Positions 1 to 53,441 of a DNA stretch of 53,441 bases are shown here, in pieces (positions within the stretch are counted from its first letter, which is position 1; each line of letters starts with the position of its first letter). The DNA is from a virus (Duplodnaviria; Caudoviricetes), in IMG/VR virus record IMGVR_UViG_3300037761_000058, positions 1-53,441 of that record, one strand, 5' to 3'. Both the position numbers and the translations under genes were made by a program. The notes beneath the pieces are model-generated. The model was given only the letters and a program-made list of their open reading frames with translations, was not told where the DNA came from and made no database searches.

Positions 1-175
1 TGAACTTGTGGGTATAGACCACTTTCGGGTAGACCGTGGACACGGCTACCATCCCAGGAGGCAGGTATCCGAACTCAAACTCATCCATCTCCTTGATGAT
101 GGCCTCGACTTTGGGGATGTCATCAGCAGATTCGCAGTAAATTCTCCCGTATCCCTTGTGTGTCAGTGTGTTCAT
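1..175 (-). CDS. hypothetical protein, truncated by window edge (MNTLTHKGYGRIYCES...)
   Basis: ATG after GAGGA RBS within linker CGACATAGAGGA; open to position 1; translated by hand. Confidence 0.6.
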   Translation of the reverse strand, partial: MNTLTHKGYGRIYCESADDIPKVEAIIKEMDEFEFGYLPPGMVAVSTVYPKVVYTHKF

Positions 176-203
176 TTGCGTTCCTCTATGTCGGAGCGGC
201 GCT

Positions 204-365
204 TCATCTCGGAAGGCTCCACGCGAGTTTCGTCAGCCACCACCACAGCCGCAGCTTCCGCCTGAAGTGGCTTAACTCTATCAGCCAAGAGCGCGGTACG
301 ATGACGCGGCAATAGAAGGTGTCCTGTACTATGTTTCTGTCCCACTGGATCATCGGTTCAACCAT
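204..365 (-). CDS. small Trp-rich hypothetical protein (53 aa, MVEPMIQWDR...WWWLTKLAWSLPR)
   Basis: Hand-translated; AGAGGGG RBS upstream; below ORF-track cutoff. Confidence 0.55.
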   Translation of the reverse strand: MVEPMIQWDRNIVQDTFYCRVIVPRSWLIELSHFRRKLRLWWWLTKLAWSLPR

Positions 366-391
366 TGTCTTTCCCCTCTGATCTAGATCGG

Positions 392-724
392 CTAATCATG
401 CGGTGTAGAGCCAGAATAAGGAAGGTCTGGTTGATCTGCTCTATCGCCGTGAAGCACGCGGTCAATCTCTCCGCGCCAGTACGGGCCGTCTGCGGTGGTG
501 TCCATCATGTCCCACTGACGCAGGCGCTCTAGAAGGTGAAGGGCTTCGCCCTCAGCTTCAGACGGCGCATCTGATAATGTCTCAGCGAGTGAACGGATGG
601 CTGTTGCTGCTGCGCTCCCAACTTCTCTAGCGTCAAGCGGCAAACCTTGAGCCTTGTTGTGGGCAGCCATTCCAGCGGTCCACGCAGCAACCGCGCATTG
701 CTCTGCAACCTGTTTCGGAGTCAT
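392..724 (-). CDS. accessory hypothetical protein
   Basis: ORF track; GAGGTG RBS; co-directional with early-left operon. Confidence 0.7.
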   Translation of the reverse strand: MTPKQVAEQCAVAAWTAGMAAHNKAQGLPLDAREVGSAAATAIRSLAETLSDAPSEAEGEALHLLERLRQWDMMDTTADGPYWRGEIDRVLHGDRADQPDLPYSGSTPHD

Positions 725-725
725 C

Positions 726-1112
726 CTATTTCACCTCTGCTGCTCTCGTTGTGGAACTGTAGACAGCGGCGTGTTCGTTGTCGGCAATCGCTTGGTCAAG
801 CATCTTGTCGAAGTCCTCGTCAAGCGTGTCGCCTAGTAACTCCCACCACCGCTCGGGCAGGACAATTCCAGATTGCACGGACGCTGACCTGATCCACCTA
901 TACCGCGCCGCATCACGCTCTGCGGCTTCCAGTTTCTCTCCCATGATTCGCACGGTTTCCTCTAGGGCGTGCTTCCAAGGATGCGTTGCACCATCGGCGT
1001 CAGAGGGCGAATCGCAAATGGTTTTCAGCTTTGCCATGAATGGCAGCGAGCATCCAAGAGCCTTGAGCCAACCGTAAGCCATTTTCAGCGTATCGCGTTC
1101 TTCTGGTGTCAT
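726..1112 (-). CDS. accessory hypothetical protein with DAARYRW module
   Basis: AAGGAG RBS; DAxRYRW motif common in phage early proteins. Confidence 0.7.
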   Translation of the reverse strand: MTPEERDTLKMAYGWLKALGCSLPFMAKLKTICDSPSDADGATHPWKHALEETVRIMGEKLEAAERDAARYRWIRSASVQSGIVLPERWWELLGDTLDEDFDKMLDQAIADNEHAAVYSSTTRAAEVK

Positions 1113-1146
1113 GCCTGCTCCTTCGTGCTAGTGGAAACTGCGGCGA

Positions 1147-1632
1147 TCACGGCATCACCGCCGTTACCTTAGTGACCTCCCCGGCAGCGTTTCTGGTCGT
1201 CAGCATCAATGGCGACGGGCCACGAACTGCGCGAGCGGCGGCTTTGATGTGCTCGGGCAACTTGCCTGTTTCGTCCGGTAGGTGCGTCGTGCAGGAGAGT
1301 CCATCGTCCTCCGGCGTCGGTATCGCAAAGGTGGCGAGCATGGCGATGTGGTGCTCGCGGCACGCGGCTACGATTTGGTCCATCAGTGGCGCGATCTTCG
1401 CGTCGTAAGCCTGTTCTTTGTTCATTCGCCGTTCCTCTCGATGTTTCCTACTCTCCGTCCGGCGAAGGTACTCAACCAGTACGCTGCGAGGAATGCGGAC
1501 CTTGACGTGGAGTTTGTTGTGGTCTGCGTCGGCATGAACTTCGATGCTTCCTTTGCTGGCATACCACCAAGCGCCACCTGGAGCATCAGTCCACAGTTTC
1601 TTAGGCGTAGCCCAATAGCGGTCGCGTTTCAT
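1147..1632 (-). CDS. hypothetical protein; in-frame fusion of an N-terminal gene with a second unit starting at 1425 (MNKEQAY...)
   Basis: Internal GAGG RBS before ATG 1425; part of the N-terminal half is duplicated at the window end. Confidence 0.65.
   Translation of the reverse strand: MKRDRYWATPKKLWTDAPGGAWWYASKGSIEVHADADHNKLHVKVRIPRSVLVEYLRRTESRKHREERRMNKEQAYDAKIAPLMDQIVAACREHHIAMLATFAIPTPEDDGLSCTTHLPDETGKLPEHIKAAARAVRGPSPLMLTTRNAAGEVTKVTAVMP
1451..1576 (+). repeat. 126-bp exact direct repeat, copy 1
   Basis: Identical to 53316-53441. Confidence 0.97.
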
Positions 1633-2384
1633 CCTTGCCCCTTGTCGCTCGCTGTTTTATCTGTCGCGCACAGGCCGCAGTTCTTGCGCCGGTAGCCGTG
1701 CGGACACTTGGCAAGATCAGGCACGGAAAGGTCGTAAGCCTTTTGCAGCGCATCGCGGTAGTTCGCCACGGAAGCGGGCTTGGCGCTGTCGTACTGGTAG
1801 CAGCACACGGCTAAGTCGTGCAGGGCCTCCATCGCTGGTGTTGCGGACAGCGCCGCTACGTGCAGTGCCTCGAAAGCATCGGCGCGGTCCTTCCAGTACG
1901 CGGCCGATAGCGTCTCGCGGTTGGCGACCTCCTGCGCCGCCTCCCTCGCCTCCTCGGCTTGGTCAGCGCGCATGTTCGCTAGGCGCTCGCGCTCGATGGC
2001 TCGCGCCAGCACGTTCCGCGCCGAGTCGCGTTCCAAGCGTGTCTGAGCCAACTCTCGCTCAAGCTGGCGGGCGTGTTCCTGCAATTTGTCCCACTTGTGC
2101 GGAGTGCAGGCGGTGCCCATGATGGGCGTGTCGCAGACCGCATCCGTCCTCGGCGTGCCTTGCTGCGGCTTCTCTGCGTTCGCCGGGAGGCCGCTTTCCG
2201 TGTCGTATAGACCCTCAGGAACGGATGGCTGCGGCTTCTCTGAGGGCGCAGGCGGATACTCACGCGCGTACTGCTCGCGGACTTCATCTTTCGCTTCAGC
2301 CACGCACGCCGGGCACGTCCTATCCCAGTGCCGCGCAGGATGGTCGGTGTGTGCTGGCTGCAAGGAGGACGAGGGCGAGGTCAT
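1629..2384 (-). CDS. mosaic accessory protein (TPRTDA module, coiled coil, CxxC ends)
   Basis: ATGA overlaps with both neighbours. Confidence 0.7.
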   Translation of the reverse strand: MTSPSSSLQPAHTDHPARHWDRTCPACVAEAKDEVREQYAREYPPAPSEKPQPSVPEGLYDTESGLPANAEKPQQGTPRTDAVCDTPIMGTACTPHKWDKLQEHARQLERELAQTRLERDSARNVLARAIERERLANMRADQAEEAREAAQEVANRETLSAAYWKDRADAFEALHVAALSATPAMEALHDLAVCCYQYDSAKPASVANYRDALQKAYDLSVPDLAKCPHGYRRKNCGLCATDKTASDKGQG

Positions 2385-2470
2385 AGTTCACCACCACAAT
2401 GAGGACAGCGATACTCAATCGTGCGCCAGACCCAACGCCGGCATTTGCCACAGAAACGAACCCAACTCAT
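2381..2470 (-). CDS. 29-aa zinc-ribbon micropeptide (MSWVRFCGKCRRWVWRTIEYRCPHCGGEL)
   Basis: Fills the gap exactly with ATGA overlaps at both ends; two CxxC; GAGGAG RBS. Confidence 0.65.
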   Translation of the reverse strand: MSWVRFCGKCRRWVWRTIEYRCPHCGGEL

Positions 2471-2868
2471 TTGCTCTCCTCGTTGCCAGACTGCGGAGAG
2501 GCCATATCGCCGTCGTCGATTACGAGCCACTGCGCCGGGTCATAGCCGAAGGTGTCGCAGATAATCTCTATTTCACGAAAGCACTCGTTGATCCGTTCGT
2601 GCGCCTCGTCGTGTCCACGCGGAGCAATCAAAACCTTCGCCGTGCCGCCTGCCGGTGTCTCCGACTGCGGCCACGGTGAAGTGTTCTCCGGTTTCTTGTC
2701 GCCGAGATACTTGGCAACTCCCTCCGGCTCGCTCCGCCGTGTCGCAGGCCGCGGCGCTCCCTGGCGACTTGTCGCAGCTTCCTCCACATTCCAGCCGGTG
2801 GCCTTTGCAAAGTGCAGCACGTTTCCGTCCTTGTCGGTAGCGATCCAGCCGGTCACTTCATGGGTCAT
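2467..2868 (-). CDS. hypothetical protein (MTHEVTGW...)
   Basis: GAGGGG RBS; ATGA overlap with upstream stop. Confidence 0.6.
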   Translation of the reverse strand: MTHEVTGWIATDKDGNVLHFAKATGWNVEEAATSRQGAPRPATRRSEPEGVAKYLGDKKPENTSPWPQSETPAGGTAKVLIAPRGHDEAHERINECFREIEIICDTFGYDPAQWLVIDDGDMASPQSGNEESK

Positions 2869-3587
2869 GGCTTCCCCCTCAGCGTGTCGCGGTAGGCGCG
2901 GATGGCTGGCCCGCATTGGATGCAGCCCCCGGCTAGCCGTACAGCCTCGTTCGCCACTTCCCGCGCGCTCGGCTGCGGTGCTTCCGGCAGGGTGGCGGCG
3001 AGCCTATCTGGGAATCCAACGCGCTCGGAAACGTCATTGAATTTAGACACCGCAGCGCGACCTAGATCAACGCCGAGCACTTCGGCCAGCAGATCAAGGT
3101 ACGTGAGCACGTCGGCGATCTCGTCTGCGAGCATTTTGTCCGTCGGCGAGAACTTGTTTCCTGCCAAGCCGTCGCGTTCGCGGTTGCGCATCTTGAGTAA
3201 CGACGCCAACTCGCCCAGTTCGCCGGTCACAGCAGTCAGCCAATCAGACGGCGACCACGATGCGATCCCGGCAGGATGCCACTTGATGCAACGCTCTACA
3301 TTGGCGCGACGAAACTCACTGAAGGTTAGGTCCGCCACCGCCCGAGCGTTCGCTGGTAGCGGCGCGGTGGCAGATAGCAGACCGATCAGTTCGTCGATCT
3401 CGGTAACGTCGAAAGTCCATTCCTCGGCGTGTGGATATTCGGCCCCTGCGCTACAGCGGTCCTCGACGGTCAGCAACAGTACGCGCGCGTCGTATTCAGC
3501 GCCGGGGCCGCGTTCCACCGTGGCCTTCGTCGCCAGCAGGAACTCGATCAGTTCTTTCCGCACTGCCTCATTGGGCGAAGGTTTCAT
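2865..3587 (-). CDS. MazG-like nucleotide pyrophosphohydrolase domain protein
   Basis: GELGEL...LADEIADVLTYLDLL...KFN acidic motifs of the all-alpha NTP-PPase family; start re-assigned to 3587. Confidence 0.8.
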   Translation of the reverse strand: MKPSPNEAVRKELIEFLLATKATVERGPGAEYDARVLLLTVEDRCSAGAEYPHAEEWTFDVTEIDELIGLLSATAPLPANARAVADLTFSEFRRANVERCIKWHPAGIASWSPSDWLTAVTGELGELASLLKMRNRERDGLAGNKFSPTDKMLADEIADVLTYLDLLAEVLGVDLGRAAVSKFNDVSERVGFPDRLAATLPEAPQPSAREVANEAVRLAGGCIQCGPAIRAYRDTLRGKP

Positions 3588-4120
3588 GCTGCCATCTCCA
3601 TTTGTTGAACTGCGACCTTGCGCTCGGCAAGGCAAATCGTGTCGTTGTGGTCGCTCCCGTGGCACACCAGGAGAAGTTCCTCGATCTCGAACCCGAGCTT
3701 GCGCCCCATGCCGGTAGAGTTCCAGCCGAAGGTCAACACGACGCCCTCTGGGCCCAGGACGCGGCAGACCTGTTCCTTCAACCGCTTGTGGAACCAGCCG
3801 CGTAGGGCGTCCCATTGCTTCATCTTCAGGCCGATGCCGTCGTAGCACTCCTTGACTTGGCGCGGGCTGTAGGGCGGGTCGATCAGGATGCAGTCCGCCT
3901 TCACGCCTTCGTCGGCCAGCTTCGCTAGGAAGTCCACCGCGTCCATGTGGTGCTCGGCGGCAGTAGCGGGGTTGAGGTCGTTGGTGTGCGTGGCCCATCG
4001 CTTGTTGCGCGCGAACGGATCGACGCTAACGCCTTGGAGATACCGGCGCACGAACTCACCCATCGGCTTACAGTCGAAGGTGTCGGCGGTGGGCATAGCC
4101 CATGCGCGGCTGAACTTCAT
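3584..4120 (-). CDS. small phage DNA (adenine) methyltransferase
   Basis: DPFA SAM-binding-like motif and DPPY catalytic motif; start MKFSRAW after GAGGGG. Confidence 0.75.
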   Translation of the reverse strand: MKFSRAWAMPTADTFDCKPMGEFVRRYLQGVSVDPFARNKRWATHTNDLNPATAAEHHMDAVDFLAKLADEGVKADCILIDPPYSPRQVKECYDGIGLKMKQWDALRGWFHKRLKEQVCRVLGPEGVVLTFGWNSTGMGRKLGFEIEELLLVCHGSDHNDTICLAERKVAVQQMEMAA

Positions 4121-4634: not shown

Positions 4635-5318
4635 TCACGCGAATAACCGTTCTTGGCGCTGCGCCACGTCGATGCGCTCGCAGGCGATGTTGAAGTAGGA
4701 CGGATCGATTTCCACGCCGATGAATGGGCAACCGGCACGAGCAGCAGCGACCCCTGTGGTGCCGCTGCCCATGTATGGGTCAAACACCGTCTGCCCAGGC
4801 AGCACGCGGGCTTCCTTGAGGCACCACGACATCAGGGCGATCGGCTTCTGCGTGGGATGCTGGCGGGCACCGTTGGCCTCGCCTACCTTGTCACAGGCGA
4901 TGCCCTTCCACTTCATGCTGAAGATCCTGGCGGCACGGTCTGCCGAGTGCCAAGCGAACTCGACGTCCGAGAAGCTATCCCACGGCTCCATGCCGTCCAG
5001 CTTGTCCCAAGCGAGCCACCGGCCACTGTCAGGCAGGCGCGGGTAGAAATGGTCTGCTCCCCACATCAGGACGTTCGTGAAGGCCAGCCACGGCTCTGGA
5101 TCGAACGGCGAGGCATCTCCGACGATCGGCATCTTGGCGTTGCGGCGCTTGTGCGCTCCCCGCCCGCCGCCAGAATGCTGGTGGGCGATGCCGTAGGGCG
5201 GGTCGGTGATAACGGCATCGGCTCGCAACTCCGGAAGGATTGACAGGCAATCCCCGAGGTAAAGGGTCGCATTCCCGATCTCGACCTTTCTGCAATTAGT
5301 CATTACACCGCTTCCCAC
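4635..5318 (-). CDS. N6/N4 DNA methyltransferase (beta class)
   Basis: TDPPY before HPTQKP and DPYMGSGTTG motifs. Confidence 0.9.
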   Translation of the reverse strand: MGSGVMTNCRKVEIGNATLYLGDCLSILPELRADAVITDPPYGIAHQHSGGGRGAHKRRNAKMPIVGDASPFDPEPWLAFTNVLMWGADHFYPRLPDSGRWLAWDKLDGMEPWDSFSDVEFAWHSADRAARIFSMKWKGIACDKVGEANGARQHPTQKPIALMSWCLKEARVLPGQTVFDPYMGSGTTGVAAARAGCPFIGVEIDPSYFNIACERIDVAQRQERLFA

Positions 5319-5749
5319 AGTAGTTTCTGGCCTTGCAGCAGTTCGGAGGTGTCGATCCTCGGACGGCTAGGCACGTTCCATTTGCCGCCTCCACGCTCGC
5401 CAAGGAGTTTCCAGCCAGCTGCACGAAGGCTTGAACCGCCTTCCTCCGGCAGCGTGTAGGTGACGAGCCTGCGGTAGCCCAATGCCTTTGCAGCGCGCCA
5501 CGCGGCCCCGTAGAGCATCGAGCAGGCGTTCCTGGCCCCATCGGTGCATACCCGGTTGACCTCCAGCGTGTAGCCGTTGTCGCTGTTCCTGGCGACCGGC
5601 CTGCCGACCATAGCGACCCCGCGCACCTTGCCGTCCGTGTCGCTGACGGCGACGCAGAACTTGCATCCCGGCATTGGCTTGTGGTGGCGGTGAAAGGTCG
5701 CCACGAAAGCGTTTGCCTCTGCGAAGTCGATGGGCGTCACTTGGAGCAT
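5303..5749 (-). CDS. XF1762-family conserved phage protein
   Basis: EANAFV..HRHH, GRPVAR, EVNRVCTDG..NACSMLYGAA, TYTL..E.G.SL signature. Confidence 0.75.
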   Translation of the reverse strand: MLQVTPIDFAEANAFVATFHRHHKPMPGCKFCVAVSDTDGKVRGVAMVGRPVARNSDNGYTLEVNRVCTDGARNACSMLYGAAWRAAKALGYRRLVTYTLPEEGGSSLRAAGWKLLGERGGGKWNVPSRPRIDTSELLQGQKLLWEAV

Positions 5750-6859: not shown

Positions 6860-7013
6860 TGTCCACGCCGGGGAAGTCCTTGGTCGGAAGCATTCCCATG
6901 CCAGCGCGCCATTTGCGCACCTGTTCTTTGTGGCATGGGTAGCACTGCATCAACTTCCTCGGTGCTCGCAACTCGACGCCGCAATCTCTGCACTTGGCAA
7001 CGGCAGCAATCAC
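6825..7013 (-). CDS. small CxxC zinc-finger protein
   Basis: CRDC...CYPC; start overlaps recombinase stop. Confidence 0.5.
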   Translation of the reverse strand: MIAAVAKCRDCGVELRAPRKLMQCYPCHKEQVRKWRAGMGMLPTKDFPGVDIDAIHRKWPRC

Positions 7014-7972
7014 GCAGCCGCCATCAGCTTGTCGTACTTCGCGTGCAGATCCTCGGGCTTGCGGCCGTCGTAGACCTTCTCCAAGATGATCGTGTTCCGG
7101 TGCCCGCTGATGAGCCGGACTTCGTGCGGCGGCAGCACCTTCAGATACCGGCTGATGGCCTCGCGCCGGTTGTCGTGGAAGCGAAGGTCAACGATGCCCA
7201 GGGCTTTCTTCGCCAGCGTGTAGCGCGCGCCGAGTGACTTGTCGTTGTAGGGGAACACCCGTTCCGTGGGCTCGTCCGTGAGCCTCGGCTGCGCCTTGAT
7301 GATGGCAGCAAGCTCGTCGAACAGCGGGAAGGTGACGTGGTTCCCTTTCTTCTGCGTGGGGTGCTTCAGGTCGCGCACCATGTAGGTGCGCTTCTCCCAG
7401 TCGATGTCGCCCCACTGCATGCGGCAAATCTCCCCGCGGCGCCTCGTGGACGCCAGCGCGAACATCATGCAGGGCACGGCCTTGATCTTCGCGTGCTCGT
7501 CCTGCTCGCCCAGGTAGTCGATCAGGCGGTGCAGTTCATCGTCGGTCGGCCGGCGCTTCCTCGGCGTGGATTTGCCCACCAGTCCGTGCTTCGACAGCAT
7601 CGGCATAGCGGCCGTGATACAAGCGTCCGACACGTTCTCGCAATCGTCCCACCTGGAGGGCGCGTACTTCAGCACCCCGCGCAGGAACGTGATGTCGTGC
7701 ATTGCCGTGGCCGGGCAGATGCCCTCCGCACGGCGAGCCATGACGTGATCCACCACGTCTGTTTTCTTCAATTCAGCAGCCATCTTTTCGACAATCGGAT
7801 ACCGCTGCAGCCGCCGAAGGCAGTACAGATGCGACTCACCAAGTGGGTCAATTTCATTCATGGCAGTGATAAAACGGTCGATCAGGTCTTTCAGTTTCAC
7901 GTCTAATACTCCCGAAGTGAGGCAGCGCCGCGTCCTTCTCTTTACGCTGCCGGTTAAGAACTGCACATTCAT
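7010..7972 (-). CDS. second tyrosine recombinase, no obvious arm-binding domain (alternative start GTG 7900)
   Basis: RRGEI, K, FHDNR, SGH and C-terminal Tyr match the catalytic residue set. Confidence 0.88.
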   Translation of the reverse strand: MNVQFLTGSVKRRTRRCLTSGVLDVKLKDLIDRFITAMNEIDPLGESHLYCLRRLQRYPIVEKMAAELKKTDVVDHVMARRAEGICPATAMHDITFLRGVLKYAPSRWDDCENVSDACITAAMPMLSKHGLVGKSTPRKRRPTDDELHRLIDYLGEQDEHAKIKAVPCMMFALASTRRRGEICRMQWGDIDWEKRTYMVRDLKHPTQKKGNHVTFPLFDELAAIIKAQPRLTDEPTERVFPYNDKSLGARYTLAKKALGIVDLRFHDNRREAISRYLKVLPPHEVRLISGHRNTIILEKVYDGRKPEDLHAKYDKLMAAA

Positions 7973-8136
7973 TTCTGAACCCTAAATGGCTCGTCGATCC
8001 TAAATTTCTCGATCTGCTGATCCGTAGGGTTCCGCTGCTCGGTCTTCGGACATCCTGGTTGCTTGCACCACAGCGCAACGTCGGCCGGAGTCCAGGTGAT
8101 GCCGCAGATAGGGCAGCGGCCGGTTACTTGGCTCAT
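7969..8136 (-). CDS. 55-aa Cys-rich protein (MSQVTGRCPICG...)
   Basis: Hand-translated; ATGA overlaps at both ends. Confidence 0.6.
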   Translation of the reverse strand: MSQVTGRCPICGITWTPADVALWCKQPGCPKTEQRNPTDQQIEKFRIDEPFRVQK

Positions 8137-8825
8137 GCTGATCTGCTCGCAATGCCTGATTCCTGAACTACGCGAACGCCCGGGTAGATCAAGTCCTCTT
8201 TGAGAACCCGGGCTTGGTTGTTCAGGAACGTCATGTTGGCGTCCAGCGCATTCAGCGGGACGGAGCCAGCCGCTACGGCCTTGACGAGCTCCAGCTTGCT
8301 CACAACCTCGGCCCGGTAGGTGGTCCTGGTGGACAGCCCGGCGATCTTCGGCGTGGTGGGGGCGATGATGGGCGCCACTACTGCCGCCGCCGCTGCCTCG
8401 AGCGCGGCTGCCTTCTCCGTCTTCCCCTTCTCTGCGGCCTTCGCAGCCTGCGCCTCGAGCCGTTCCCGTTCCTTCCGGGCTTCCTCTTGGGCCTTGGCTT
8501 CAGCTGCGCGCCGGATCCGCTCCTGCTCCTGCTGATAGCCCAGGACGGCCCGCTTGACGTAGCCCTCGGCGTCGATCAGCGGTTGCTGGTGCTGCTTCTT
8601 CTCGGCGACCAGAGCTCGGTGAGCGTCGAATGCCCGCTTGATGTGCGGGTCGAACGTCTCGTCCAGCTTCTTCGACAGCGCCTTGATGACCTTCAGCTTG
8701 TCGGCGGATTCGATGTAGTGCTCCTCGCTCGTAACCCGGAACTCCTTGGCGACGGTGAGGGCGTTGCTGGTTTCCTGTACCAGTTCGGGCGTGGCGAGAT
8801 CGGTCACTTGTGCAGTTCCTTCCAT
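8133..8825 (-). CDS. coiled-coil protein of the recombination module
   Basis: Helical composition with C-terminal PGVRV motif; adjacent to exonuclease and annealase. Confidence 0.6.
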   Translation of the reverse strand: MEGTAQVTDLATPELVQETSNALTVAKEFRVTSEEHYIESADKLKVIKALSKKLDETFDPHIKRAFDAHRALVAEKKQHQQPLIDAEGYVKRAVLGYQQEQERIRRAAEAKAQEEARKERERLEAQAAKAAEKGKTEKAAALEAAAAAVVAPIIAPTTPKIAGLSTRTTYRAEVVSKLELVKAVAAGSVPLNALDANMTFLNNQARVLKEDLIYPGVRVVQESGIASRSA

Positions 8826-9472
8826 GCGTGGATGTTGAGCAGCGAGCGGAACACGTACTCATCGTTCTGCTCGTTGTACGAATAGAGCTTGTAGGTTCCG
8901 TCGCGTAGCAGCTGGACCCCGGCCCGCTTCTTGACCTTGATGCCGAGGCTTTCCGCGGCTGCGATGCTGTAGCCGGCCGTCTGGATGGCCGTCGCAGGGT
9001 CCATCGCCCATACGCACTTCGTATCCAAGAGCTCGTCCGGGGATTCGCTATCGAAAACGCGGGTCCCGAGCAGGTCAGGTGTGCCGGCGAATCTCAGCTT
9101 CCTCGAGTAGACGATCGGCTGATTGAGGAGTACCCGGAACCCGGTGTCCTGCTTGAAGGCAATCCAGGCCCGGAAGAAAGGCAGCACCGCAAGGTCCACG
9201 GAGTCCATGTCAAGGTCCTGCCTCTCCCATAGCGTGATCGCTGTATCCAGGGCCTTGCCGATCTGGCGCTTGTACTCCCGGGCTGCATCCGAGCCGCCCA
9301 TGCTCTGCAGCGGCCGGATGATCGTGGTCACAGAGGGAACGAGGTAGCCGTCAATCCGGTACTCGTGCCGTTCCTCGTCGAAACTGATCTCAGCCGGCTT
9401 CATCTGGTTGTCTAGTTGTTCCTGAATCCACTTGTCGTACTCGTAGTCTTCAGAGCCAGGGACGTAACTCAC
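8804..9472 (-). CDS. PD-(D/E)XK exonuclease
   Basis: PSVTTI, AGTPDL, DTK and Q..GY motifs. Confidence 0.82.
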   Translation of the reverse strand: MSYVPGSEDYEYDKWIQEQLDNQMKPAEISFDEERHEYRIDGYLVPSVTTIIRPLQSMGGSDAAREYKRQIGKALDTAITLWERQDLDMDSVDLAVLPFFRAWIAFKQDTGFRVLLNQPIVYSRKLRFAGTPDLLGTRVFDSESPDELLDTKCVWAMDPATAIQTAGYSIAAAESLGIKVKKRAGVQLLRDGTYKLYSYNEQNDEYVFRSLLNIHAWKELHK

Positions 9473-10299
9473 TCAGGCGTCTGCTCCCCGATCCAGACCA
9501 AAACGCGATTCACTTCGCCGAACGCGATGTCCTCGATCTTCTCGACCTTGAACTGCGCGCATAGCTTTTTCTCGTCCACAGTGCCGCCTTCGAGCTTCTT
9601 GCGGATGAACTTCAACTGACCGGATTCCAGCTTCTTCGAAGGATCAGCTGGCGCTGCTGCCGACTTCGCCCGCGGCTGCTGTACGGTCTGCTTCTGCTCG
9701 CCCTCGGTGACGGCTTCGCGTACCTCATCCGGCATGTCTTCGAGATCCTGGTTGAAGCAGTCGGAAGCCGCTAGGGCGGTGAGAGTGAAGTCGATTTGGC
9801 CGCGCTTCTTTGCCATCTTAAGGACCGTGTTCGCAACGTCAGCGGGCTCGGTCCTGACTTGCTGGACGGTGTAGTGTCCCTGTTGCTTGCGGCCGAACTT
9901 GACCCTACGCCGCGTTTCCGGCGTGCCGTCGAACTCCTCCTCGCAGACGGCCCGGCGCCACTTGTATTTCTCCTCGCCGCTTGAGCACTCACCGAGTCCG
10001 GTTCCGATTACGATGCCGCTGGTCTGATGGGTTCCTGTGCAGAAAACCCGGTAGCGAATCTCGTCCCCGGTTGACAGGTCCTCGACGCGAGGATTCACCG
10101 CAATGCGAAAGGTGGTGAGCAGAACTTCGGATCCGGCTTTGTAGAGCGCCGGCTTATCCGTTCCCGGGATGGTCCCGTAGTGGACTCCCTCTTTCATCAC
10201 GCTTTCCATGACACGCTGGATCAGCTGGACGTGTCCCTTAACTTCGGCCGCCGTGAGGGCTCTGGCTTCGTTCGGAATGACTGCGACTTCGGTGTTCAT
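9469..10299 (-). CDS. putative single-strand annealing (recombination) protein
   Basis: HYGTIPGTDKP.L.KAG.E, NTVLKMAKKR and F.QDLED motifs; paired with exonuclease; AAGGA RBS. Confidence 0.7.
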   Translation of the reverse strand: MNTEVAVIPNEARALTAAEVKGHVQLIQRVMESVMKEGVHYGTIPGTDKPALYKAGSEVLLTTFRIAVNPRVEDLSTGDEIRYRVFCTGTHQTSGIVIGTGLGECSSGEEKYKWRRAVCEEEFDGTPETRRRVKFGRKQQGHYTVQQVRTEPADVANTVLKMAKKRGQIDFTLTALAASDCFNQDLEDMPDEVREAVTEGEQKQTVQQPRAKSAAAPADPSKKLESGQLKFIRKKLEGGTVDEKKLCAQFKVEKIEDIAFGEVNRVLVWIGEQTPE

Positions 10300-10310
10300 G
10301 GAGTTCCTTT

Positions 10311-10637
10311 TCACAGTGTTCTCGCTCTCGCGCATGCCGGAATTGCCGGCGGCAGGGCACCATCGCCCCATGATCTGATCCACTCCTGGCCCACATCCTC
10401 GACGCCATCGTGGCGCACGCATGGCACTGGCGGCGTCAAGCGCATCAGGTCGATCGGCGACTCGAAAGCTGTCGCTGGTGGCATCCGCTCCGCCACCATC
10501 GCCTGCGTAACCACGGCTTCGTCGTAGTCCTTGGTGTGTGCCGCCACCACGAGGATCACCACCAGTGCAGCGTAGAAATACTCGCGCTTGCGTGGCTTGC
10601 CCGTAGGCAGTGGCGGCAGGTAGCGGCGCTCGGTCAT
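10311..10637 (-). CDS. single-TM hypothetical protein, first gene of the leftward operon
   Basis: Hydrophobic segment; ATG 6 nt after the PL -10. Confidence 0.6.
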   Translation of the reverse strand: MTERRYLPPLPTGKPRKREYFYAALVVILVVAAHTKDYDEAVVTQAMVAERMPPATAFESPIDLMRLTPPVPCVRHDGVEDVGQEWIRSWGDGALPPAIPACARARTL

Positions 10638-14766: not shown

Positions 14767-15036
14767 TTATTCCTCCCCGAGTTCGCGCAGGAGGGCGTAA
14801 GCACGGTCTACTGACCGTTTCGCGTTGATGCTGTAAGCCTCGCGCAGCGCTTCTACCAGCTTCGGGTAGGCGTTAGCCGCGTGCGCCAGATATGCGGCAT
14901 TCATCTTGCGGCCTTCCGGCGTGAACCTAGGCTCATTGGTGCGCGCAACCGTGTACCACTGGCCGTGAGAGATTGCCTTCACGGTGAATGCCTCGGCCCT
15001 GTATTCCAAGGGCGCGGCGGGTGTGTGCTTGGGCAT
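14767..15036 (-). CDS. KHTP...NAAYLAHAANA-type phage protein
   Basis: Motif typical of small phage early proteins; start approximate. Confidence 0.55.
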   Translation of the reverse strand: MPKHTPAAPLEYRAEAFTVKAISHGQWYTVARTNEPRFTPEGRKMNAAYLAHAANAYPKLVEALREAYSINAKRSVDRAYALLRELGEE

Positions 15037-48854: not shown

Positions 48855-48920
48855 GGCCACTGTGGGCCTTCCTAGGGCTATCCTGTGCAGGGCGGTCCAA
48901 GTGGTCAGGGCTTGACAGCA

Positions 48921-48975
48921 GGACTCAAAATCCGCCGGGGTCAAACCCGTGGGGGTTCAAATCCCCCTTCCGGCA
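48921..48975 (+). other. attP core: 3' half of tRNA-Leu(CAA)
   Basis: GGA-CTCAAAA-TCC, long variable arm, GGGGGTTCAAATCCCCC T-arm, TTCCGGCA; 5' half absent; abuts integrase stop. Confidence 0.85.
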
Positions 48976-48982
48976 CTAGGAC

Positions 48983-49963
48983 TTAGGCGTGTTTCTTGAG
49001 CCTTGGACGAGAATCACGTCCCCGCGCCCTCCCTGAGACGCGCGGCAGACCGTCTACAGCCTCCCTCAGATGCTCATGGGCTAGGTGGGCGTAGCGGCTG
49101 GTCACGGCGAGGCTGGAATGCCCCAGGAGATCCCTGACCACGGTGAGGCTGGAACCGCTCTGCACGAGCCAGGAGGCGTAGGTATGCCGGAGGTCATGGA
49201 ACCTGACGTGCTCCATCCCAGCCTTCCTGCGGGCCTCCCTGAAGCCCCATTCGAGGCCATCGGGGGAAAGCCGGATTGGCAGGCGGACCCCGGCAGCTTC
49301 AGGTGGCAGGGGAACGATCCGTGGCCGGCCGTTCTTCGTGTCCTTCAGGACCAGCGACCCGTCCCGACTGTCTTCGGGCTGCAGGCTCAGGAGTTCCCCG
49401 CGGCGTAACCCGGTCAGGGCGGCGAGCATGATGGCGTCCCGCACCGACCTAGAAGCGTGGCCGGCGAGCTCCTTGACTTGGGCCGGCGTGAGGAAGACGT
49501 GCCGCTGCTTCTCCCCCGGTAGGAGCGTGATCCGGTCCCCAAGCGGCTGATCGAGCCATCCCCACTGCCTCTGAGCCAGCCGGGCGACCCTACGCAGGAC
49601 AGCCAGTTTCCGGTTGACCGTGGCAGGAGCGGCTTTCCTCTTGATGGCGTCGGCCTTCAGCATCTCGGACACGTCTACTATCTCGGTGAGCGATCGGCTC
49701 TTGGCGAAGGGGTAGATCGTGCGGACCTTCTTGATGAGGTCGGCGTGGGAGCGGAGCGTTGCGGCTTCCCCGGTCAGCCAACGGTGTAGAGCTTCCTCGA
49801 GCGTGTACTGCGGCGTCCTTCCAACTCGATGATCTTCGAGCCGTCCCCGTGTCCTGCGTTCCCACTCGAAAGCATCCGCCCTACGCCCAAAAGAGCGGCT
49901 AAGTCGCCTGCCGCCAAACTGAATCCGGGATTCCCAGGTCTTTCCGTGGCGCCTGACCGGCAA
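48983..49963 (-). CDS. int: phage integrase (tyrosine recombinase)
   Basis: TGLRRGEL, TKNG, FHDLRH, LLGH, RYAH; TTG start after GGAGGAG. Confidence 0.95.
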   Translation of the reverse strand: MPVRRHGKTWESRIQFGGRRLSRSFGRRADAFEWERRTRGRLEDHRVGRTPQYTLEEALHRWLTGEAATLRSHADLIKKVRTIYPFAKSRSLTEIVDVSEMLKADAIKRKAAPATVNRKLAVLRRVARLAQRQWGWLDQPLGDRITLLPGEKQRHVFLTPAQVKELAGHASRSVRDAIMLAALTGLRRGELLSLQPEDSRDGSLVLKDTKNGRPRIVPLPPEAAGVRLPIRLSPDGLEWGFREARRKAGMEHVRFHDLRHTYASWLVQSGSSLTVVRDLLGHSSLAVTSRYAHLAHEHLREAVDGLPRVSGRARGRDSRPRLKKHA

Positions 49964-50112
49964 AGGTACTCCTCCCAAGCCTCGGCCCGGATTCTAACAA
50001 GAGCCCCAAGTCGTATGGTCTTGAGCCTGCCGGCGAGGATCTGGCGCCTGATGTGCCGCGGCGAACACTTCGCCCTGGCAGCGCAATCCTCGATCGTCAG
50101 GAGGTCAGTCAT
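49774..50112 (-). CDS. xis: excisionase (HTH_17-like)
   Basis: LLTIEDCA...S..HIRR.I..GRL....LG..VRI; overlaps int start. Confidence 0.8.
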   Translation of the reverse strand: MTDLLTIEDCAARAKCSPRHIRRQILAGRLKTIRLGALVRIRAEAWEEYLCRSGATERPGNPGFSLAAGDLAALLGVGRMLSSGNAGHGDGSKIIELEGRRSTRSRKLYTVG

Positions 50113-50264: not shown

Positions 50265-50292
50265 GCGCTGCGGTTCTGTACCGAGCGAAGGG

Positions 50293-50364
50293 TAGCCCGA
50301 GCTGGGATCGAACCAGCGACCAAGCCCTTATAAAGGACACGCTCTACCACTGAGCTATCGGGCA
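50293..50364 (-). tRNA. tRNA-Ile, anticodon UAU
   Basis: TGCCCGA-TA-GCTC-AGTGGTA-GAGC-G-TGTCC-TTTATAA-GGGCT-TGGTC-GCTGG-TTCGATC-CCAGC-TCGGGCT-A folds as a cloverleaf; U:U at 1:72 and 27:43; no encoded CCA. Confidence 0.85.
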
Positions 50365-51391: not shown

Positions 51392-51612
51392 AATTTCTCC
51401 TCGTTCTCAGAGGGCAAAGGCTTTGGCAGTGCGTTCTGGATAGCATTGCTGGGTTTGAGTGGCGCGGCCTTTTGTCCATCGCTGTTATAGACGCCCTCAG
51501 GTTCTTTACCTGCTATCAAGTACAAGTCGATTGCCGCCAACAATCCAGTCCCAAAAAACATCATAGTCACGAATAACGCTACCTCAAACTCTTGTGCTTT
51601 CCAATCATTCAT
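51382..51612 (-). CDS. single-TM hypothetical protein
   Basis: Hydrophobic segment; ATGA overlap. Confidence 0.55.
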   Translation of the reverse strand: MNDWKAQEFEVALFVTMMFFGTGLLAAIDLYLIAGKEPEGVYNSDGQKAAPLKPSNAIQNALPKPLPSENEEKLCP

Positions 51613-51866
51613 GGCTGCTGATCTCCAGACTGGCGCTCGTGAACCGAGCGGAGGTATTCCGTTGCGCGCCTCCCGATGGCCTTCATGGAAGCCTCTTGGC
51701 GGTTAGCCGCTTCCGCCGCGTCGGAAATCTCCTGAAGCAGACAATCCACAACCTCCGTTAGATGGTTGAGATTCACCAGCCTGGCAACATCGACTTCATG
51801 TTTGCCAACTGCGCGCACTGGTCCGACAAGTTCCATGACAACGTTATAGGCGTTGTAGTTGACCAT
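51609..51866 (-). CDS. hypothetical protein
   Basis: GAGGAG RBS; abuts Thg1 stop. Confidence 0.6.
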   Translation of the reverse strand: MVNYNAYNVVMELVGPVRAVGKHEVDVARLVNLNHLTEVVDCLLQEISDAAEAANRQEASMKAIGRRATEYLRSVHERQSGDQQP

Positions 51867-52628
51867 CTATTTCTCCTCTATGTCGTCGGGCGAAGGATCG
51901 GGCATCCGGTACAGAGCCTCAACGTAGCCGCGATCCTGCGTGAACACGGGCGGCTCGGTGTCGAACTGCCATTCCCGGCGCTCGCACGTCTCACCCGTCT
52001 GCGGCACGGGCTTGAGAACCTTGACCGGCTTGCAGACAGTGCCGCGCTTGTAGATCGTAGGCGTGTCCTCCCACGGCTTCCCGGCTTCACGCAGGCGGTC
52101 GATCATGCCTCGGCTGTCCACGCCATGCAGGGCTTTGTGGGAGAACTGAGCCTGCGCGCACATGCTGATGCTGTTCCTGGTGGCGTCCTGCTGTCTCCAG
52201 ATCAAGTAGTTCGTGACCTCGCTCAAGTCAGGCAGCACGAAGGCACGGCTGTCGAACTGGCGCTGCCCCCAAGCTATCGGCGCACCGCCGTTGAACGCGG
52301 CGGTAGCGATAGCGGCACTCAGACTGAGTACCTTGTTCAGCCGCTTCCCGCACCACGCCTCGGTGTTCGGCACCATGTCGTCGCGCGCCACGATGCTGAT
52401 CTCGTCGGACTGGAAGTAGGCCAGCACCGCGCCCTGAATCTGCTTGCACAGGGCTACGGCTGCAAGGCACATCTGACCGTGGAAGATGTCATCGAACGGC
52501 TTTGCCAGCTTCAGGCCGTGGAAGGCTCGCCCGTCAACGCGGATCACCATAGGCATCCGGCGCGGCAGCGAGAAGTCGAAGCACGCTTCGTAAGCCTTGA
52601 AGCGGTCTCCAATGTCGTCGCCTTTCAT
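51867..52628 (-). CDS. thg1: tRNA(His) guanylyltransferase Thg1-like protein (3'-5' polymerase)
   Basis: IRVDGRAFH, KPFD, QSDEIS, FDSR, WRQ.D..RNS; both metal-binding Asp present. Confidence 0.93.
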   Translation of the reverse strand: MKGDDIGDRFKAYEACFDFSLPRRMPMVIRVDGRAFHGLKLAKPFDDIFHGQMCLAAVALCKQIQGAVLAYFQSDEISIVARDDMVPNTEAWCGKRLNKVLSLSAAIATAAFNGGAPIAWGQRQFDSRAFVLPDLSEVTNYLIWRQQDATRNSISMCAQAQFSHKALHGVDSRGMIDRLREAGKPWEDTPTIYKRGTVCKPVKVLKPVPQTGETCERREWQFDTEPPVFTQDRGYVEALYRMPDPSPDDIEEK

Positions 52629-53068
52629 TCTTTCCCCTCTGATCTACCGGGCGCCGCTTGTTCGTGGACAATCTGTTGGCAGCGGGTCAACGCCGCACGG
52701 CTCTCGTCATAGGCGTCCTGCAACGCAAACGCAGCAGCGAGAACGCGGGTAAACGGATCGGTTGTGTCGAGGCCCAGTTCCTTGACCACGGCCGTAAGAC
52801 ATTGAGCTTTGGTCCGTGGCGTGGCGCCTTCGCGCGGAGCTTCACTGGGGCGCTCAAGCCATTGTCCGATACCGGCCAGTAGATTCTCCGCCACGTTCCA
52901 GCGGTCCTTGCATCCGAGCTTGGATTGCGGGATGCGCAGCACTTCCTTGCCGTCCTCCTTGACGACGAAGCACCACTCGTCGAAGTGCGTTTCCTCGTAG
53001 CCAAAATAGAAGCTGAAGCGCCCACCGGATACTCCTGCGTAGTCGCTGGCGCTGTAAAAGTTGCTCAT
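52625..53068 (-). CDS. two-module accessory protein
   Basis: AGGAG RBS; ATGA overlaps. Confidence 0.7.
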   Translation of the reverse strand: MSNFYSASDYAGVSGGRFSFYFGYEETHFDEWCFVVKEDGKEVLRIPQSKLGCKDRWNVAENLLAGIGQWLERPSEAPREGATPRTKAQCLTAVVKELGLDTTDPFTRVLAAAFALQDAYDESRAALTRCQQIVHEQAAPGRSEGKE

Positions 53069-53304
53069 GTCTTGCTCCTAGTGGAAACACGGCGAACCTT
53101 GCGCTTCGATGTCTTGCGCCCAAGCTGGTTGCATCGAATAGGAACTATGTGCAGCCCGTAGATGGCCCTGCCGTCTGGCAGATGTACTCGCAGCCGCACG
53201 ACGACCTGAGCGACCCAATTGCCTGCCGCATGGCGTTTGAGTGCGATGACCTTGGCGGTCTCAAGTTCCGGCTTCCACTTCTTCGGCTGCTCGATCTTAA
53301 CCAT
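53065..53304 (-). CDS. basic hypothetical protein (MVKIEQPKK...)
   Basis: ATG lies just before the stop of the gene carried in the repeat. Confidence 0.6.
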   Translation of the reverse strand: MVKIEQPKKWKPELETAKVIALKRHAAGNWVAQVVVRLRVHLPDGRAIYGLHIVPIRCNQLGRKTSKRKVRRVSTRSKT

Positions 53305-53315
53305 GCTTCGCCCTG

Positions 53316-53441
53316 CTCTCCGTCCGGCGAAGGTACTCAACCAGTACGCTGCGAGGAATGCGGACCTTGACGTGGAGTTTGTTGTGGTCTGCGTCGGCAT
53401 GAACTTCGATGCTTCCTTTGCTGGCATACCACCAAGCGCCA
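53316..53441 (+). repeat. 126-bp exact direct repeat, copy 2 (window end)
   Basis: Identical to 1451-1576. Confidence 0.97.

Follow-up and report, generated by a model that had tools for sequence, protein, structure and literature searches.

Short sequences at the junctions between successive genes, here called linkers L1 to L4, have been identified in the leftward early operon of a phage represented by an IMG/VR viral record of 53,441 nt (class linear; CheckV completeness 100%), the whole of which is referred to as the window. The linkers keep the same order in arm A (1-1450) and arm B (51867-53315) of the window, both on the minus strand, and in the terminal piece, referred to as L107, of a phage contig of 40,303 nt that comes from a different sample. 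Single genes, unrelated among these three haplotypes, are set apart by a series of at least four distinct linkers. We regard it as rather probable that the linkers are conserved boundary sequences acting as crossover points for short-homology recombination. The kind is already known, being that of the conserved boundary sequence of mosaic temperate phages, and is here seen at the resolution of the single gene.

Linkers between single genes of the accessory stretch

Gene R (1435-1632, minus strand) has a conserved body of about 62 amino acids (aa). Behind it, arm A, the minor haplotype, encodes on the minus strand A1 (1147-1425), A2 (726-1112), A3 (392-724), A4 (204-365, with a 53-aa product) and A5 (2-175, cut by the start of the contig). 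Arm B, the major haplotype, encodes on the same strand B1 (53065-53304), B2 (52625-53068) and the Thg1-like B3 (51867-52628), which is followed by B4 (51609-51866). No similarity could be detected between the proteins of arm A and those of arm B (best blastp E 0.02); A2 compared with B6 gives E 0.02. A1 and A2 match phrog_20111 and phrog_13871 respectively, both weakly. The sole arm gene with a strong family is B3, predicted by family match to be a Thg1-like protein (Pfam PF04446, 74.6 bits against a curated cut-off of 29.2; phrog_4717, E 2.7e-67). A kinship of A4 with R (E 0.001 in a single comparison, VIVPRSWLIE against VRIPRSVLVE) was too weak for use. The arm A copy of gene R has no stop codon and continues in-frame into A1 as a 161-aa open reading frame (ORF) at 1147-1632; A1 retains its own ribosome-binding site (RBS) and ATG despite this read-through, as expected for a recent joint.

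B2 is a two-module mosaic. Its residues 1-74 belong to a family of 81-109-aa proteins, and residues 75-147 have been found as 99-100% identical copies behind two other N-terminal parts, with the tails GRSEEKA and GRSEEK, and as a 64% identical copy in a third protein. The modules are joined at PSEAPREGATPRT. The same peptide motif is present near the N-terminus of a 277-aa backbone protein of L107, and a weaker form of it in the 251-aa protein of the window, in A3 and in a 131-aa protein of L107; it resembles an in-frame interdomain linker.

L1 of arm A (1110-1150, minus strand) is intergenic, extending from the A1 stop to the A2 start, and is identical to L107 2273-2297 in 25/25 positions. 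L1 of arm B (53066-53095, minus) encodes the end of B1 (RRVSTRSKT and stop) and overlaps the B2 start as ATGA. The core shared by the two, GTTTCCACTAG, lies at 1128-1138 and 53078-53088 on the minus strand. A second L1-like copy, L1' (720-772, minus), occupies the A2|A3 junction, and its part 720-756 is 89% identical to L107 2247-2283. L2 of arm A (368-387, minus) is intergenic between A3 and A4 and matches arm B in 18/18 and L107 in 16/16 positions; in arm B (52629-52646, minus) it encodes the B2 tail GRSEGKE and overlaps the Thg1 start as ATGA. L3 is again intergenic in arm A (182-193, minus; A4|A5), identical to arm B in 12/12 positions, and in arm B (51874-51885, minus) encodes the tail DDIEEK of the Thg1-like protein. 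L4 of arm B (51609-51637, minus) lies at the B4|B5 junction and has a 12-mer, a 7-mer and ATGA in common with L107 (score 29).

All four linkers span stop-to-start junctions, as islands of 12-39 nt in which the DNA is identical or nearly so. L1 to L3 are intergenic in arm A, and in arm B they form the coding end of the gene before them, with an ATGA or TAGATG overlap with the next start. L1, L2 and L3 occur once per arm and exactly twice in the window. An earlier note on this DNA had described L1 to L3 as conserved in order around unrelated proteins, and their coordinates, identities, order and the unrelatedness of the arm proteins have been confirmed. It had also stated that each linker carries the RBS of the next gene, which holds for L2 and L3; in L1 the conserved core lies upstream of the RBS. 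Apart from the L1 core, the islands of identity are made up of the last codons or stop of the upstream gene together with the RBS of the downstream gene.

The significance of these matches was assessed with 48-nt windows upstream of 80 predicted genes, giving 3160 pairs. Five pairs share at least 11 nt, and four of the five are colinear pairs of arm A with arm B, which are also the four longest of all: 20 nt (end of the 126-nt repeat described below), 18 nt (L2), 12 nt (L3) and 11 nt (L1). The gapped scores are 36 for L2, 26 for L1 (17/19 between the arms in its 5' part) and 24 for L3, the 99.9th percentile being 25.7 and the 99th being 20. None of 500 shuffles contained one 18-nt match or three matches of at least 12 nt. 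Chance similarity among RBS regions, to which we give practically no credence, could draw on the 11-mers and 12-mers that are common between 1450-nt blocks of the same genome: the arms against the other 1450-nt blocks (32 comparisons) show 0-5 matches of at least 11 nt, 0-2 of at least 12 nt and none of at least 14 nt. It could also draw on a fourth 12-mer between the arms that is away from the junctions (670-681 and 52896-52907, in coding sequence and in different reading frames), and on the 16 unrelated matches of the L2 18-mer in very large collections. At the level of whole arms the L1 11-mer and the L3 12-mer are unremarkable, and it is their position that makes the difference. The junction-window statistics, the shuffles and the recurrence in L107 with its controls speak against chance, which is refuted for L1 and L2 and, for L3 alone, incompletely. 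By these comparisons the linkers are real homology.

L107 was found in IMG/VR with a pattern made from the 5' part of L1, one of the four matches being related. Between L107 and the window there are eight exact matches, 18-27 nt long, colinear and all on the same strand; about 0.13 would be expected from 88 control loci totalling 897,952 nt, which contain 9 such matches (none above 20 nt). Local matches of 113-117 aa with 28-34% identity connect three backbone proteins to proteins of the window, and the rest are unrelated; the arm proteins of L107 gave nothing below E 0.09 against the window proteins. Its operon begins with an RNA ligase gene (Pfam PF09414, 2297-2947), followed by a linker of which the first 25 nt equal L1 of arm A and the next 37 nt are 89% identical to the A3 leader, that is, L1'. 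After a 131-aa gene comes L2, sharing 14 nt with arm B and 16 with arm A, plus the first codons ATGAAAG, and then a 66-aa gene. The next junction is L3-like, with 10 nt in common with arm A, a 12-nt insertion and then the AGAGGAAC leader as found before A1 and A5. It precedes a second 66-aa gene, L4, which is common to the B4|B5 junction, and a 176-aa gene. Among 640 pairs of L107 and window junctions the top scores are those of L1' (55), L1 (53), L2 (34 and 32), arm-B L1 (29) and L4 (29). The order is L1<L2<L3 in arm A and L1<L2<L3<L4 in arm B and L107. The earlier note had named as support for its slots a recurrence of the linkers in fixed order around varying genes of related phages, and this is seen in L107. 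The recurrence is convincing for L1, L2 and L4 and weak for L3, and the genes between the linkers differ once more.

The single L1/L1' linker of L107 is chimeric, and A2 is therefore a cassette flanked by two L1 copies; such a linker would be expected as the remnant of recombination between the L1 copies flanking A2, or as the site of A2 insertion. The extra copy at 748-759, already pointed out in the earlier note, is not significant by itself (score 17) and is confirmed by L107.

L1 has been found with four upstream genes (A1, B1, the L107 RNA ligase gene and a Thg1-like gene) and three downstream genes (A2, B2 and a gene designated Y), and its edge is sharp and recurrent at 1146-1150. This Thg1-like gene enters the list through an examination of 119 Thg1 homologues, with protein tails as a proxy for junction DNA. 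In all of them the conserved body closes near LYRxP(D/E), with variable tails behind it. The tail STSTKEQA of one homologue 79% identical to B3 (P0028) agrees in 8/9 positions with arm A L1 read in frame, a case seen once among the 119. One weak tail resembling arm B L1 was no better than a shuffled-peptide control. In sediment metagenome run X2, contig 9 agrees with 544-1147 (part of A3, A2 and L1) at all but five positions, and its next 753 nt are divergent; we infer that it is the 1361-nt Logan contig that encodes P0028. A Thg1-like gene would then stand directly upstream of arm A L1 and A2 in another sample, and one stands between L2 and L3 in arm B, so that genes do not seem to be tied to slots. 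Similarly, two of the three gene R homologues that were found end in EYLRRTERSSKT (RRTERSSKT), one agreeing with R throughout its first 60 residues and the other at 63% identity, and the third ends in EYLRRVSTTTKQEEL (RRVST...). These tails resemble the L1-coded B1 tail RRVSTRSKT and the in-frame arm A L1 product VSTSTKEQA, which suggests that there may be haplotypes in which R runs straight into L1, without A1 or B1.

Other junctions resemble one another as well. The leader of the R|A1 junction in arm A (1426-1450, minus strand) is of L3 type and resembles the A5 leader with a score of 29, above that of L1 or L3 between the arms. The 3' end of gene R resembles the 5' flank of arm B L3 (12/13), and in their ribosome-binding part the leaders of A3 and B6 are similar to that of B4. 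By such resemblances the linkers form a network and not strict addresses. The proposal of the earlier note that each position of the operon is an addressable slot stands insofar as the order is kept and cassettes are swapped; it fails insofar as the Thg1-like gene is not bound to one slot and the linkers are not unique to slots, an L3-type leader being present also before A1 and L1 twice in arm A. Also against such slots, islands of this kind lie inside genes as well, and the C-terminal module of B2 keeps its L2-coded tail behind two other N-terminal parts; what L2 holds in its 5' half is thus the module's own 3' coding end, which survives in arm A as a non-coding remnant.

Searches for further relatives gave few loci. 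Neither end of the window has a match among GenBank phages (blastn, 'distant' mode), and a protein search of IMG/VR gave no match for gene R, three loci at 37% for Thg1, four loci at 35-43% for A2, and for the methyltransferase one locus at 65% that has only that gene in common. In an IMG/VR search based on a Thg1 alignment, the 80 loci retained of 121 share only Thg1, bar two weak matches, namely to the integrase in L027 and to the 279-aa gene product (window 2868-3704) in L083. The island at 3334-3354, used as a pattern, was found in L107, L119 and L120, the last of which ends before the arms.

Two haplotypes joined in one contig

The window has a GC content of 59.5% and a gene layout of the temperate-phage type. 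A leftward operon on the minus strand runs from about 11.8 kb down to position 1, rightward genes occupy 11.9 to 48.4 kb, and a minus-strand block at 48.4-53.4 kb ends in a tyrosine recombinase of the Phage_integrase family (int, 48983-49978) and an excisionase-like ORF (xis, 49774-50112). A second tyrosine recombinase of the same family, at 7010-7972, lies in the middle of the early operon, far from the xis/int end. A repeat of 126 nt is present on the minus strand at 1451-1576 and 53316-53441, as the earlier note had reported, and is exact (offset 51865); position 1450 differs from 53315. It encodes the C-terminal two thirds of gene R. The second copy and the contig end on the same base, at which the assembly has run back into sequence used before. 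A direct terminal repeat is not present, as the end repeat matches 1451-1576 and not the start of the contig. Minus 1-1450, the window is a circle of 51,865 nt (1451-53315), in which the leftward operon leads through gene R and arm B to tRNA-Ile, xis and int.

Logan contigs from four sediment metagenome runs (X1-X4) were aligned to window 1-4000. As Logan gives one depth figure per contig, without raw reads, the proportions below are rough. In X1, the run richest in this DNA and possibly the sample of origin, three arm A contigs have depths of 3.2, 3.7 and 2.1, and core contigs have depths of 16.6, 12.1, 11.9 and 15.4. A 709-nt contig of depth 12.7 covers 1447-1658 with one difference and continues into about 500 nt unlike arm A; the single difference, whose position within 1447-1658 is not listed, is as arm B would give at 1450. 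The depth of arm A is thus lower by a factor of about 4-5 than that of the core contigs and of the arm-B-type contig. A 245-nt contig of X3 holds an arm-A-type junction (1445-1658, 0 differences) and diverges upstream of 1658; the arm A unit is found, therefore, behind other upstream genes also. These observations indicate that one accessory stretch is represented here by two alternative haplotypes, arms A and B, which the assembler joined, and the depths (arm A 2-4x, arm-B-type 12.7x, core 12-17x) mark arm A as the rarer one. The assembler would have appended 1.45 kb of a rarer co-occurring relative to a circular arm-B genome of about 51.9 kb via the shared 126 nt, and the accessory stretch would sit at the far end of the leftward early operon, between gene R and the tRNA/xis/int end.

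Strain-variant branches are familiar in metagenome assembly graphs, where a repeat of near k-mer length at a contig end attaches a low-coverage alternative branch. The layout of arms A and B agrees with this in all points, and 126 is k-1 for k = 127, which we take to be a common assembler setting. The earlier note had placed both arms in one genome, which would require that gene R was duplicated with its own cassette array behind each copy. That both arms are on a single contig rated 100% complete by CheckV is in favour of such a duplication, which we hold to be very improbable nonetheless, and the claim is not borne out. The second repeat copy ends at the last base of the contig, arm A is the shallower in X1, and other runs have arm A pieces without the rest, or gene R with other neighbours. 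Moreover, without arm A the 51,865-nt circle has xis/int after arm B, as in lambdoid left operons. In practical terms, a CheckV-'complete' viral contig may hold an appended alternative haplotype that resembles an internal duplication.

Proposed exchange at the linkers and its alternatives

The modular theory reportedly goes back to Susskind and Botstein in 1978, and linker or boundary sequences are said to have been described in HK620 by Clark and coworkers in 2001. If the linkers are crossover points, related phages would cross over in the islands and single promoterless ORFs would be exchanged in register, the order being kept because the linkers differ from one another. A duplicated linker, such as L1 and L1' around A2, would allow a one-gene cassette to be gained or lost, and L107 has the expected single chimeric linker. 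The enzymes would be phage recombinases tolerant of short, diverged homology. Phage Rad52-like recombinases recombine diverged DNA, and the minimal efficient pairing segment of Red-beta is quoted as 23-27 nt (PMC3945230). Short conserved boundary sequences are a published model (PMC3029335), with which the fixed order of differing linkers, the joining of one linker to several unrelated genes at sharp edges and the chimeric linker at a missing cassette agree. PMC3029335 also describes such sequences as absent at most mosaic joints and favours illegitimate recombination.

Several points weigh against crossover at the linkers. No crossover has been observed, and the haplotypes known at the DNA level are three plus two partial ones. 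Their depths rest on Logan contigs with one figure each, and in X3 the arm-A-type unit stands behind a different upstream gene. Of the linkers, only L1 (25-39 nt) attains the length quoted for Red-beta, L2 (14-18 nt) and L3 (12 nt) being too short. The window yielded no recognised annealase family, and 8136-10422 has no Pfam match; there are two PHROG 'exonuclease' matches and a neighbouring 317-aa protein without recognised family. Half of the eight islands of at least 18 nt common to L107 lie inside genes, and the junctions are therefore not the sole conserved spots. L3 is weak in L107 (score 23, about rank 10-12 of 640) and interrupted by the 12-nt insertion. Searches beyond this population did not detect the linkers: the L2 18-mer has 0 exact matches in IMG/VR, where L107 was missed as it carries a 14-16 nt variant, and its 14 metagenome and 2 genome matches elsewhere include none that is related (0/16; blastn, tblastx). 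Among the 119 Thg1 homologues an L2 tail and an L3 tail were each seen in 0/119. A fourth relative, G002 (L119/L121), shares two islands only and none of L1-L4.

In the main alternative, the islands would be kept for gene expression, as RBS, stop-start coupling and perhaps as a site of RNA binding or processing. The mosaic itself would then result from rare illegitimate joints of which selection keeps those at gene borders, as in the Hendrix model, the linkers being survivors and not sites of crossover. L2, L3 and L4 do hold GAGG-type ribosome-binding sites and ATGA stop-start overlaps, and the L2 regions fold less well than shuffles (z +1.2 and +1.6), as open initiation regions should. The shortness of L2 and L3 beside the Red-beta segment (as quoted in PMC3945230), the simple origin of the L2 5' half as the coding end of the B2 module and the general lack of such sequences at mosaic joints, where PMC3029335 favours illegitimate recombination, all agree with it. 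The L1 core, however, lies upstream of the RBS and is identical over 25 nt in two phages with unrelated neighbouring genes, and the joining of L1 to four upstream and three downstream genes at the same edge, 1146-1150, is unexpected from independent illegitimate events. The islands inside genes agree over 20-27 nt even at all synonymous positions, although the proteins around them are only about 30% identical (28-34% locally); this argues for exchange or selection at the DNA level and not for protein conservation or selection on the RBS. The chimeric L1/L1' linker of L107 is the expected product of recombination between linker copies. Retention for expression accounts fairly well for L2-L4 and poorly for the L1 core, the intragenic islands and the chimeric linker, and we assign to it a low probability overall, well below that of crossover at the linkers.

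Integron cassettes (attC/IntI) are promoterless single genes in one orientation behind a common promoter. The cassettes seen here are likewise promoterless single ORFs in one orientation, A2 lies between two L1-like copies, and two Phage_integrase-family genes are encoded (7010-7972, 48983-49978). The linkers might on these grounds be sites at which a site-specific recombinase, for example that of 7010-7972, moves ORF cassettes, which we consider very unlikely. One recombinase would need a shared site, whereas L1-L4 have no common core, and inverted repeats are absent from the linkers, which do not fold better than their shuffled versions (z -1.8 to +1.6). Each linker is present once per arm, and islands occur also in frame inside genes. 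Hairpin-forming attC-like repeats are lacking, there being no significant fold at the linkers and no local inverted repeat in the arms among those listed, and the exchange is probably driven by homology and not site-specific.

The PeSL cassettes of T4-type phages (PMC2839356, PMC4122927) offer another comparison. PeSL are described in PMC2839356 as small conserved elements of about 100 bp on either side of ORFan genes in variable regions, all copied from a single consensus and containing a sigma-70 promoter and a terminator stem-loop. The same source describes a gene between two copies against one chimeric copy in a relative (PMC2839356), to which A2 between L1 and L1' against L107 is alike. 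In contrast, the linkers described here are of 12-39 nt, differ from one another and have no promoter/terminator pattern or fold. One promoter-like site was found per region, off the linkers and not above shuffles, and no terminator was found at the linkers (fold z -1.8 to +1.6). The lack of such patterns and folds and the mutual difference of the linkers argue against both PeSL-type elements and attC-type sites.

Crossover at conserved boundary sequences remains the reading that we prefer. Like the boundary sequences of lambdoid phages, the linkers are short, common to phages with unrelated modules, placed at gene borders of the early operon and fixed in order, and lambdoid boundary sequences too are proposed sites of homologous exchange. 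They differ in their resolution, four or more distinct linkers following one another with single ORFs between them, in often encoding the tails of upstream ORFs and in having similar islands in frame inside genes. They belong, moreover, to uncultivated phages of sediment metagenomes without DNA similarity to GenBank phages. A more far-reaching and tentative idea, which we think possible and not likely, is that the ordered, mutually different linkers of 12-39 nt are addresses for a register-preserving, homology-guided exchange of single promoterless ORFs among the phages of this population, a recombination-based functional analogue of the integron. If so, an address system would be maintained for quick reshuffling of accessory genes with their translation signals intact, and the reshuffled genes would include RNA-repair genes (Thg1-like, RNA ligase) that may counter host defences.

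It is a long-standing question whether mosaicism arises at conserved linkers, as in the model of Susskind and Botstein, or from random illegitimate joints filtered by selection, as in that of Hendrix. About 15 sediment metagenomes, of which four runs were aligned, seem to hold further variants, and these make the linker question testable: do upstream and downstream genes assort freely across each linker? Clean natural test cases are few because boundary sequences are missing at most joints, according to PMC3029335.

Further islands and neighbouring genes

Along the operon, a junction island at 2466-2488 (minus strand) encodes the tail GNEESK and stop of a 149-aa gene and is identical to L107 in 23/23 positions, and another covers the 3' tail of a backbone gene (2865-2903, common to L107). 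In-frame islands common to L107 lie inside genes at 2645-2664, 1966-1991 and 2139-2156, and a 24-mer at 14774-14797 is also common to L107. An intragenic island encoding PANARAVA (3331-3357, minus) is identical in 27/27 positions to L107, L119/G002 and L120/G003. Several islands coincide with contig breaks or jumps in all four runs (2488, 2633, 2665, 3000/3331 and 1663).

The PANARAVA stretch, 27-36 nt in length, is the same in all of four viral contigs with hardly anything else in common (window 3331-3357; L107 4594-4629; L121 928-963; L120 353-379) and is a joint in all four runs. It could be a functional site at the DNA or RNA level. In the 251-aa gene, the segment 1877-2144 (RERLANMRADQAEEAR) has a summed contig depth 3-8x that of its flanks in all four runs, with many variant letters, and is common to many different genomes in these sediments.

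Genes of RNA-repair type are found in or near the variable stretch: the Thg1-like gene (51867-52628), a PNKP-phosphatase-like gene (PF25109, 5787-6344) in the backbone and, in L107, the RNA ligase (PF09414) at the place matching the variable stretch of the window. They may represent a theme of tRNA repair as counter-defence. ARAGORN identifies tRNA-Ile(tat) at 50291-50364, in the operon downstream of arm B, with a 19-nt island (50273-50291) abutting its 3' end. It also identifies tRNA-Leu(caa) at 48895-48976, adjoining the integrase gene, and tRNA-Arg(cct) at 8738-8820, antisense in an exonuclease-like gene and possibly spurious. The corresponding part of L107 (704-888) has tRNA-Gly and tRNA-Glu on the opposite strand. 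In the early operon, at 4635-5749, a DNA methyltransferase (phrog_67) adjoins a Mom-like DNA modification protein (phrog_1384).

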